DNA from: a virus
Lineage: Duplodnaviria; Heunggongvirae; Uroviricota; Caudoviricetes
Direction: 5' to 3' (one strand)
DNA: 7,863 bases
Virus record (IMG/VR): IMGVR_UViG_2548876950_000005
Span: 1 to 7,863 of that record
Below are positions 1,988-3,332 of the stretch, one piece after another. The notes beneath the pieces were generated by a model. That model ran no database searches and was not told the DNA's origin. It saw only the letters and a list, made by a program, of their open reading frames with translations. A program made the position numbers and the translations under genes. Numbering within the stretch: position 1 is the stretch's first letter; each line of letters begins with the position of its first letter.

Positions 1988-2329
1988 ATGGCGTTCACTG
2001 ACCTTGAATATCAAGCGGTCAAAAAAGAAGTTCACCAATTCATTGAAAGCATAAGGCCGCCTGAACATATCCGCAATGAACTGGATATTGTTTATAGCAT
2101 CAATGACCAAACGATAGATATCGGCGAACAGCGCCCCGTGTGGCAGGGCAATCCAGGTGAAACAAACATCCTGCCATCAGCAAGAATCAAGTACATACGT
2201 TCTCTGGATAGATGGAAAATCTATTGGATGCGGAAGGATATGAAATGGCATCAGTACAGTACTGAACTTTCGCTGACTGATGCGCTTGAAGTTGTTAGGG
2301 CTGACCCAGCCTGCTGTTTCTTTAGGTAA
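1988..2329 (+). CDS. Hypothetical protein, 113 aa, directly downstream of cI (rexA-position cargo); possibly a small conserved DUF-family protein
   Basis: Strong SD GGAGG 5 nt upstream of ATG, 37 nt after the cI stop. C-terminal motif RWKIYWMRKDMKWHQY…ACCFF resembles, from memory, a small bacterial DUF family (possibly DUF3024); unverified. Confidence 0.6.
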   Translation: MAFTDLEYQAVKKEVHQFIESIRPPEHIRNELDIVYSINDQTIDIGEQRPVWQGNPGETNILPSARIKYIRSLDRWKIYWMRKDMKWHQYSTELSLTDALEVVRADPACCFFR

Positions 2330-2351
2330 GAGAAATAGATTTAGGAGATGA

Positions 2352-2380
2352 AAGGTCGCAGAGGTGCGGCCTTTTTTATT
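2352..2380 (+). terminator. Rho-independent terminator after the cI-orf113 unit
   Basis: Stem AAGGTCGC/GCGGCCTT (one G·T wobble), loop AGAGGT, then TTTTTTATT. Confidence 0.6.
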
Positions 2381-2389
2381 GAGAGTGGA

Positions 2390-2448
2390 TCTTGAACGGA
2401 AATTCTCAAGACTTGAGTCTTGCATGCAAATCAATTCCTGGATAAACT
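2390..2448 (+). promoter_or_regulatory. Inverted-repeat cluster and candidate promoter upstream of orf173: IR TCTTGA-N10-TCAAGA (2390-2411), IR CAAGAC-N4-GTCTTG (2407-2422), TGCATGCA palindrome (2421-2428); candidate -35 TTGCAT (2420-2425) and -10 TAAACT (2443-2448)
   Basis: Read directly. Lies in the 150-bp gap between the terminator and the next ATG. Confidence 0.3.
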
Positions 2449-2480
2449 CGATCTGAGTCAATAACTTAGAGAGAGAGCAA

Positions 2481-3002
2481 ATGGCAAAGTCAAACGTTAG
2501 CGTGCAGGCATTCAAGGACTTCCTTGAAGAGCTTATGTCGCTGAACATAATGAAGGAGGCCACCGCTCGAAATTTAAAAAACTCATCCGCTCGCCTCTTA
2601 ACGGTAGTCCAAGAAGAGGAAATGGGTGATGTTACTCAGCTTGATGTGAATGAGCTTGCCGAGCGATACATCAACGCAACTGAGCCGAAGCCTAGCGACA
2701 GCAGCATTACTGCATATAAAAGCCGCATGGAAAGTGCAATCAAAAAGTTTGTAGCTTTCCAGTCTGGTGAAGAAATCCCATACACTCCGATTGACAAAGA
2801 ATCCAGTGAGGAAAAAGATTTGGCTGGCGAACCAACAAAAGTCGAAGGCAAGGCTAATGCACTTCATACCTATGATCTTCCAGTAGTTCTTCGACCTGAA
2901 TCAGGGGTTACAGTAACGATTAAAGGCATTCCTAACGATATCACAAACGAAGAAGCCGAACGCATCTCTTCAATTCTGAAGGTTTACGTTCGGCCTCAAT
3001 AA
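2481..3002 (+). CDS. Hypothetical acidic protein, 173 aa (rexB-position cargo)
   Basis: Long ORF on the same strand as cI, between cI and OL/pL. Purine-rich GAGAGAGAG upstream of ATG. No family recognised. Confidence 0.55.
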   Translation: MAKSNVSVQAFKDFLEELMSLNIMKEATARNLKNSSARLLTVVQEEEMGDVTQLDVNELAERYINATEPKPSDSSITAYKSRMESAIKKFVAFQSGEEIPYTPIDKESSEEKDLAGEPTKVEGKANALHTYDLPVVLRPESGVTVTIKGIPNDITNEEAERISSILKVYVRPQ

Positions 3003-3305
3003 TGCAAAAGCATTCAGCACAATGTCCAACTCCCCAGTCCGACATTGATGCTGTTTAACCAGAGCCTCCAAAAGGAGCCCTTGTTAAGGTACACAATATT
3101 TGCGATGTAACCTTAGCGCGTCTGGTACATTTTTTCAAGCGGTTGTAGGGCTGCCGCCAATATGAGAAAACACAGATGTCTACATACAATTTGAATGACC
3201 AATTCGATCGAGAAGTTCATGTGAATGCCTATGAACGGATAAGGCATGGAAATCTTGAACATGTGTGTGAGCATTATCGCTCAAGGCCACACCGCTAATC
3301 ATCAA

Positions 3306-3332
3306 CCCGGCCACCGAGCCGGGTTTTCTTTG
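3306..3332 (+). terminator. Rho-independent terminator upstream of OL/pL
   Basis: Stem CCCGGC/GCCGGG (3306-3311 / 3318-3323), loop CACCGA, then TTTTCTTTG. Confidence 0.5.

Follow-up and report, generated by a model that had tools for sequence, protein, structure and literature searches.

In phage lambda, the genes rexA and rexB lie directly 3' of the repressor gene and before the operators OL and the promoter pL, and are arranged for expression in the lysogen. The same slot is used by bstA in the Salmonella phage BTP1 and by the proven exclusion gene stk in phage 933W, where a gene of the DUF3024 family stands between cI and stk. Here, we report on the corresponding interval of a Caudoviricetes genome in IMG/VR (record IMGVR_UViG_2548876950_000005, positions 1 to 7,863; these 7,863 nucleotides are hereafter called the window), which holds the genes orf113 and orf173. 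The initial annotation of this DNA regarded them as an unrecognised two-gene candidate module for exclusion or defence, placed as rexAB are. The position is indeed that of rexAB, but the interval is composed of two independent units, at 1988-2380 and 2407-3332. The first is orf113, the same DUF3024 gene as in 933W, which alone appears to be co-expressed with the repressor; the second is a cassette made of orf173, a conserved structured RNA and a small open reading frame (ORF), which may work as an antidote/poison-like switch.

The whole window is a lambdoid immunity region (Table 1). Its cI-type repressor was recognised by Pfam (Peptidase_S24, 1e-17, and HTH_3), the start at 1243 being the RefSeq start mapped from an identical prophage, and OL/pL contains the inverted repeats ATAACTTAT/TAAGTTAT and a pL-like TTGACC-17-TATCTT at 3502-3530. 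The cargo cannot be called unrecognised, as its genes have been in the databases since the sequence of VT2-Sakai: the stretch 1951-3339 is 95.6% identical in VT2-Sakai/Sp5, Stx1 phage, Nil2, 1717, 2851 and dozens of O157 phages. With positions 1900-3400 as the query, a 100% identical match was obtained in a chicken isolate of Escherichia coli, while some part of the interval was matched in 925 of 5426 complete E. coli genomes, with at least 80% of it covered in 220. Both genes, on the + strand, are where the initial annotation had placed them; so are the 37-nt gap between the end of cI (1950) and orf113, with its strong Shine-Dalgarno sequence, the terminator after orf113 (stem 2351-2360/2365-2374, then T6) and a second terminator before OL (3304-3325 plus a T-rich tail).

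The two genes belong to separate transcription units. The terminator between them folds at -16.4 kcal/mol (2340-2392); it was not listed by the consensus terminator scan, and it is retained directly after cI in phage Oslo, where DUF3024 is absent. Together with the putative conserved promoter that precedes orf173, this terminator bears out the separate control that had been proposed for the gene. The proposed pairing did not stand: an orf173 relative lies 3' of DUF3024 in only 17 of the 70 intact phage loci, many loci have orf173 without DUF3024 (in phage Oslo and others it directly follows cI), and in Sp5 the DUF3024 gene is frameshifted and orf173 intact. It is with the downstream RNA and small ORF that orf173 shows a conserved association, and the cassette is a portable, old and self-contained unit that runs from promoter to terminator. 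No earlier description was found of this split into two units, as it is read here from the sequence.

Table 1. Features of the window and of the orf173 protein. Positions are nucleotides of the window, or residues where marked aa.
Feature	Position	Strand	Remarks
cII	510-809	-	
cro-like gene	907-1131	-	
OR	about 1150-1212		
cI-type repressor, helix-turn-helix and S24 peptidase	1243-1950	+	heads the operon carrying orf113
Interval studied, between cI and OL	1951-3460		
Shine-Dalgarno sequence of orf113, GAGGAGG	1977-1983	+	read from the sequence
orf113, DUF3024 protein, phrog_3467, PADLOC PDC-S43	1988-2329	+	repressor-linked passenger gene
Intrinsic terminator ending the cI-orf113 unit	2351-2380	+	10-bp stem, GAGG loop, T6
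7+7 bp palindrome, CAAGACT-TG-AGTCTTG	2407-2422	+	read from the sequence; overlaps the -35
Putative sigma-70 promoter of the cassette	2420-2448	+	-35 TTGCAT, 17-nt spacer, -10 TAAACT
orf173, orthologue of Sp5 ECs1184/ORF23	2481-3002	+	173 residues
orf173, stand-alone tyrosine-recombinase core-binding (CB/SAM-like) domain	aa 8-95		
orf173, disordered acidic linker	aa 102-127		
orf173, small beta-beta-alpha C-terminal domain	aa 130-165		
P1, long hairpin	3015-3053	+	13 nt past the orf173 stop; -16.6 kcal/mol
RNA core	3059-3170	+	
P2	3059-3063/3121-3125		
Pseudoknot	3076-3081/3147-3152		AGCCCU/AGGGCU
P4	3083-3090/3110-3117		
Conserved single-stranded segment	3130-3140		TTTTTTCAAGC
P5	3139-3142/3154-3157		
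Small ORF, H0092 of VT2-Sakai, phrog_21154	3176-3298	+	40 aa, 5 His and 1 Cys; third cassette component
Intrinsic terminator closing the cassette	3304-3332	+	consensus scan; -14.5 kcal/mol
OL operators and pL	about 3461-3530	+	right-hand edge of the cargo slot
N-like ORF	3770-3976	+	68 aa

The promoter of the cassette appears weak but conserved, and is presumably used in vivo. It fell below the threshold of the consensus scan, while its hexamers and their spacing are retained in diverged loci whose spacer sequence varies (TTGCAA-17-TAGAAT in the related locus L112). The palindrome overlapping the -35 hexamer looks operator-like and is conserved in loci L004, L106 and L112; a second short palindrome, TTGCATGCAA, is found at 2420-2429. 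These two palindromes are what stands of the inverted-repeat-rich region that had been noted 5' of orf173, where no inverted repeat of 10 nt or more is present. At the other end of the cassette, the terminator begins 4-17 nt past the stop of the small ORF in 25 of 25 distinct loci. In L119, L121, L127 and L133, which have another RNA type, long GATC-rich inverted repeats (for example GGATTCATCGATCGATGAA...TTGATCGATGAATCC) precede the orf173 relatives and could be operators or Dam-sensitive sites.

Neither homology nor an enzymatic motif had been recognised in orf173. As to the latter, the protein has no tyrosine recombinase catalytic domain (R-H-R-Y), Pfam Phage_integrase being unmatched; as to the former, the core-binding fold of integrases is present, so that orf173 does have the N-terminal core-binding (SAM-like) domain of a tyrosine recombinase. 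The score against the Pfam SAM-like integrase model was 14.4 bits, under the cut-off of 22.3, and a sequence search against solved structures returned nothing significant. The C-terminal domain is marked by a near-invariant P-x3-R...P-x-D/x-L-x3-E-A motif. The family comprises 647 cluster representatives at 50% identity, and the 150 members listed are about 160-240 aa long, save one fragment of 110 residues. Compared with the tyrosine recombinases, with MrpR of SPbeta (MrpR/YopR) and with SroF of phi3T, orf173 differs in that the catalytic domain is absent and the protein ends after a 45-residue beta-beta-alpha domain; membership in the integrases was rejected because of the missing catalytic domain. 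With its core-binding domain of the recombinase type followed by the small C-terminal one, orf173 can be described as a presumptive DNA-binding protein.

The initial annotation had overlooked both the conserved structured RNA (about 3015-3170) that fills the 173-nt gap downstream of orf173 and the small ORF that follows it. Single-sequence folds of 26 distinct spacers gave one and the same plan: P1, a long-range stem around one or two hairpins (P2-P4), a conserved single-stranded U-rich CAAG motif, and P5 just 5' of the ribosome site of the small ORF. P1 is present in 26/26 spacers, shows covariation in the alignments of type A (the type of the window) and type B (the commoner one), and takes the form of a canonical terminator in certain relatives (L002, L118). 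The loop of P5 is complementary to an internal loop, and their pairing covaries across loci, the pseudoknot of the window having its counterpart in GAGCAC/GUGCUC (L121, L122 and L129; longer in several others), GGACAC/GUGUCC (L117), GGUCUC/GAGACC (L140) and GGACUC/GAGUCC (L138). In the minimum free energy fold of the window, 3130-3137 is paired with 3163-3170, across the weak GAGA ribosome site of the small ORF, which is accordingly placed by the fold in a position where it is predicted to be buried.

Covariation was assessed separately for the two types. In the type A alignment (A8), a small sample of 7 sequences whose structure was derived partly from the window itself, 94.6% of the cells are paired and 9 pairs show double changes; none of 500 shuffles reached the observed value, and slid controls gave 29-49%. 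In the type B alignment (A9, 18 sequences), 90% of the cells are paired and 20 pairs show double changes, again with 0/500 shuffles reaching the observed value and with slid controls at 34-44%. As A9 was fitted to P1-P3 only, its P4, P5 and pseudoknot are independent of the model. Positions that are invariant or frequent G-U pairs agree with the + strand. Rfam 15 contained no family for the RNA, either in the window or in eight related loci. Applied to the three RNA types in one MAFFT alignment, RNAalifold returned a single 4-bp stem, as their sequences cannot be aligned with one another, and a DNA-pattern scan for further type A RNAs produced one new sequence and four chance matches.

The small ORF matched its PHROG at 5e-8, and no family of PADLOC, Pfam or NCBIfam. 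SH2026Stx1 retains the protein although the DNA there can no longer be aligned, which speaks for a real gene. Among 66 related phage loci, 55 have, 145-175 nt past the orf173 stop, a small ORF of one of two types, either the 40-44-aa His/Cys-rich type of the window (phrog_21154) or a basic type of 56-59 aa (phrog_33859). A third type, of 47 aa with CxxC...CxC, stands at the same distance in 10 of the remaining 11, so that Yersinia phage YP3 is the sole locus without a small ORF (65/66). The three types of small ORF combine freely with the three sequence types of the spacer. The basic protein (44-59 aa; PPGFRW-x-CR-x-RR ... LDAH-x-YGY-x-W-x-F-x-VR) belongs to no Pfam family, and is always found behind a structured RNA 3' of orf173 relatives (L112/L113 and L119-L149 in IMG/VR; L268, L271, L275 and L279 in metagenomes). 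The 47-aa protein, MATTICxKCGNSCEVIFRPYIxDKNGKKxFPKNSRVFPIPVCGCDEI, has a zinc-ribbon-like CxxC...CxC pattern, and is encoded in L106, L114-L118, L138 and L140-L142 at the position of the small ORF of the window.

The version of the cassette with the basic small ORF lies, in other Enterobacterales, between the replication genes and Q (the nin region), away from cI; of the type B cassette, no near-identical copy was found in E. coli genomes. Nine metagenome relatives were sampled at about 25% identity, and four of them (L268, L271, L275 and L279) have the cassette, with a terminator-like hairpin, the RNA motifs GGGAAU...UAGUGGAUUCCC and the basic small ORF. The loop-loop pairing of these four covaries as well (GGAAAGC:GCUUUCC, GGCAAGC:GCUUGCC, GGGAAAC:GUUUUCC). 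No earlier description of this conserved combination of a pseudoknotted RNA and a small ORF was found.

Published experiments concern ECs1184 (Sp5 ORF23), which is 99.4% identical to orf173. It is one of two early-region genes for which no in-frame deletion could be obtained from an Sp5 lysogen of E. coli K-12, and its deletion was judged lethal by the authors, who suggested a role in stable lysogeny (PMC5155283). In the RNA-associated proteome of an enterohaemorrhagic E. coli (EHEC) Sakai lysogen, ECs1184 was recovered at a false discovery rate of 0.065, short of significance (PMC7618764); the protein is therefore made in the lysogen. We found no earlier description of a recombinase core-binding fold in this non-deletable gene.

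The simplest model that fits the non-deletability of ECs1184 is that orf173 restrains a small ORF which is gated by the RNA and would be harmful when released. The best explanation of the interval, to which we would assign a probability of roughly 0.4, is that it consists of two units, the second being a self-regulated switch of the antidote/poison kind. The orf173 protein would restrain the cassette by acting as its own repressor at the palindrome, by neutralising the small protein, or in both ways, while the RNA fold would gate translation of the small ORF. Loss of orf173 would then free a harmful product, and the cassette would behave as an antidote/poison switch of the addiction or abortive-infection type, possibly with an effect on infecting phages. 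The wider proposal, that the cassette is an undescribed protein-RNA-peptide switch built on a recombinase core-binding domain and serves as an addiction or abortive-infection device of prophages, those of Shiga-toxin phages among them, and of environmental bacteria, is tentative and rather doubtful.

Two groups of known systems invite comparison with the cassette. As in type II toxin-antitoxin systems, the first product would be a DNA-binding protein with a disordered acidic region and a small C-terminal domain, the second gene is small, the first gene is non-deletable (PMC5155283), and a palindrome lies at the promoter. The cassette differs in having a 173-nt structured RNA between its genes, and its second gene matches no toxin family. 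Membership in the classical toxin-antitoxin systems was considered; the small ORF has no family match, and the non-deletability of the first gene is drawn from the literature only. The second group is formed by P1 c4-icd-ant, P4 CI RNA and Gifsy-1 IsrK-orf45-anrP, where a structured RNA likewise lies directly 5' of a small ORF and one transcript contains complementary segments near the small-ORF ribosome site. As in these systems, a 5' terminator-like hairpin could yield short and long isoforms (PMC4825925). In the cassette, however, the small ORF is followed by a terminator, where those systems have an antirepressor or antiterminator gene coupled to it in translation, and a conserved gene for a core-binding-domain protein precedes the RNA. 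The resemblance is a likeness of design and no evidence of membership; IsrK/c4 membership was rejected, as neither the window nor eight related loci matched the Rfam models of these RNAs at E up to 1.

Several points weigh against the switch model. A structured gap of 173 nt is unlike classical type II toxin-antitoxin pairs, and the small protein is hydrophilic and unlike any known toxin. That no mutant could be obtained in Sp5 does not amount to a demonstrated mechanism, and ECs1184 was no strong RNA binder in the follow-up polynucleotide kinase (PNK) assay (PMC7618764). The RNA types are linked as homologues by a common architecture and a few invariant motifs, the type B covariance model misses the type A RNA of the window, and five of the nine distant family members lack both the RNA and the small ORF.

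Among the other explanations, it is conceivable, if unlikely, that orf173 acts as a further repressor of lysogeny beside cI, a recombinase-derived DNA-binding protein comparable to SPbeta MrpR/YopR or phi3T SroF that keeps an early phage promoter silent, so that its loss would induce or kill the Sp5 lysogen, with the RNA and the small ORF as accessories. The suggested role in stable lysogeny would suit such a repressor; the location of the same cassette in the nin region of other prophages, the relative that adjoins gin in the tailed Yersinia phage YP3 and the relatives in non-phage metagenome contexts would not. Nor would a phage-specific repressor be expected to travel with the RNA and the small ORF as one closed unit from promoter to terminator.

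It also seems improbable that the RNA is the main product, i.e. a small RNA derived from the 3' untranslated region or released by an attenuator and acting in trans on messages of the phage or the host, in the manner of P1 c4, P4 CI or Gifsy-1 IsrK, the 'pseudoknot' being an antisense-target pairing that controls the small ORF. A canonical terminator at P1, as in L002 and L118, would free a short RNA or permit read-through, as described for IsrK (PMC4825925), and the covarying pairing does join the internal loop with the loop just 5' of the small-ORF ribosome site. However, the Rfam C4 and IsrK models were unmatched at E up to 1, the literature yielded no transcript data, and a trans-acting RNA leaves unexplained why a protein gene should resist in-frame deletion.

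A Rex-like exclusion or defence module formed jointly by orf113 and orf173 in the lysogen is very improbable. Both genes do occupy the rexAB position, orf113 matches a PADLOC defence candidate (PDC-S43), and in 933W a proven exclusion gene follows the same DUF3024 gene; against this stand the rarity of the pairing, the loci with orf173 but no DUF3024, the DUF3024 pseudogene of Sp5 and the terminator that splits the genes. The expectation that neither protein would be Rex-like was borne out, Pfam giving no Rex family and PADLOC no Rex-like match. The PADLOC scan (E up to 1), in which the presence of Rex models in PADLOC-DB 2.0.0 is unconfirmed, returned a single model, PDC-S43, for orf113, whereas orf173 and the small ORF were unmatched. 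A membrane segment as in RexB is missing from all three proteins, the maximum Kyte-Doolittle mean over 19 residues being 0.93, 0.72 and -0.66 for orf113, orf173 and the small protein, respectively. With no sequence or architectural similarity to RexA or RexB and no membrane component, Rex membership was rejected; as to defence by orf173, the sole experimental datum, the non-deletability of ECs1184 (PMC5155283), points elsewhere. Finally, it is hardly credible that the two genes are neutral hitch-hikers which serve neither the lysogen nor infection: DUF3024 does decay and no published phenotype was found for it, but it keeps about 40% identity across phyla, the orf173 family is large and of conserved architecture, the RNA shows compensatory changes, and ECs1184 could not be deleted.

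The initial annotation had found no homology for orf113, which was wrong: residues 4-112 match Pfam DUF3024 (PF11225) on profile positions 2-111 with 106.4 bits (cut-off 24.9; E = 1e-30), and the PADLOC model of the single-gene candidate PDC-S43 (PDLC05018) at 2.2e-41, so that orf113 is a full-length member of both. The AlphaFold2 model (mean predicted local distance difference test score 90.5) has an alpha-beta5-alpha topology, and on this model orf113 is a small, soluble, apparently non-enzymatic alpha/beta protein without a catalytic motif. Searching solved structures by sequence produced no significant match; viral structures, searched with the DUF3024 model in Foldseek, contained none at E up to 0.001, and NCBIfam had no match for orf113 or orf173. 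DUF3024 has 17 invariant positions (22-sequence alignment A1); its decay is seen in the Sp5 frameshift and in forms shortened to 84 aa in other lineages.

The arrangement for co-expression with cI that had been proposed for orf113 is supported by the 37-nt gap and by the unit apparently shared up to the terminator. In 66 of 70 IMG/VR phage loci, a cI-type gene lies directly 5' of intact DUF3024, with a gap of 9-66 nt in 63 of these 66, and the repressors concerned form at least 8 clusters at 70% identity. The DUF3024 gene follows the repressor after 38-66 nt, in the same orientation, in 933W, SH2026Stx1, the P22-like SE1 and a Morganella phage (32% identity). When the Phi24B infection transcriptome was mapped to 933W genes, the DUF3024 transcript moved with cI, p23 and stk (PMC10789677). 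The genes 3' of DUF3024 vary, including orf173 relatives, a RuvC-like gene plus stk, and a ParA-like gene. In the Salmonella phage SE1 (L006), a 357-aa ParA-like ATPase is encoded at 3481-4554 after cI-DUF3024, and is a candidate cargo of the same slot.

Repressor linkage was seen only in the enterobacterial phage branch of the family. Other relatives, with about 40% identity, occur on genome contigs (L008-L087) of Bacillota, Desulfobacterota, Nitrospirota, Verrucomicrobiota, Spirochaetota, Bacteroidota and others; a few of those outside the Gammaproteobacteria adjoin YoeB, PIN or Fic genes. Conserved neighbours are lacking: of 106 neighbours of DUF3024 in 80 non-enterobacterial genomes, at most 3 belonged to any one family. 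The literature yielded no functional study of DUF3024, PDC-S43, PF11225 or the PHROG ids; the only mention of PDC-S43 found was a genome annotation listing, and the DefensePredictor supplements contain neither DUF3024 nor PF11225 nor PDC-S43. DUF3024 is already listed as a defence candidate, and any defence label for orf113 rests only on that PADLOC listing. The protein is a passenger of the repressor operon, acting on its own. Most likely it acts by binding a partner in the lysogen, and its role may lie in superinfection exclusion, defence or the tuning of lysogeny.

Some features beyond OL should be mentioned. The N-like ORF covers only the C-terminal 57 positions of Pfam N_peptide, and its counterpart in an E. 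coli genome with 100% identical cargo is a RefSeq pseudogene without the N-terminus; the N of this prophage may be defective. Just 3' of N, the ORFs 3898-4431 (+, 177 aa) and 4334-4588 (-, 84 aa) are convergent and overlapping, and have no family assignment. Sp5 has a different gene at the position of these ORFs (ORF21/ECs1180), which is its other non-deletable early gene (PMC5155283). A cIII thermoregulator (Rfam, 88.5 bits) at 4872-4930 marks the start of cIII. In NZ_CP148401.1 (L153), whose cargo is 100% identical, IS1203 is inserted between the N region and cIII (11718-12931); the window does not have it, and therefore comes from a related but different prophage copy.

Both Stx2 and Stx1 phages of E. 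coli O157:H7 have the cargo described here. Once the widespread, repressor-linked DUF3024 gene is set apart from the variable genes that follow it, the 'defence hotspot' beside cI has to be parsed differently, and the RNA of the cassette represents a candidate structured RNA family absent from Rfam. Taken together, the recombinase-type fold of orf173, its conserved RNA and the small ORF that had been overlooked provide a testable hypothesis for the hitherto unexplained non-deletability of ECs1184.

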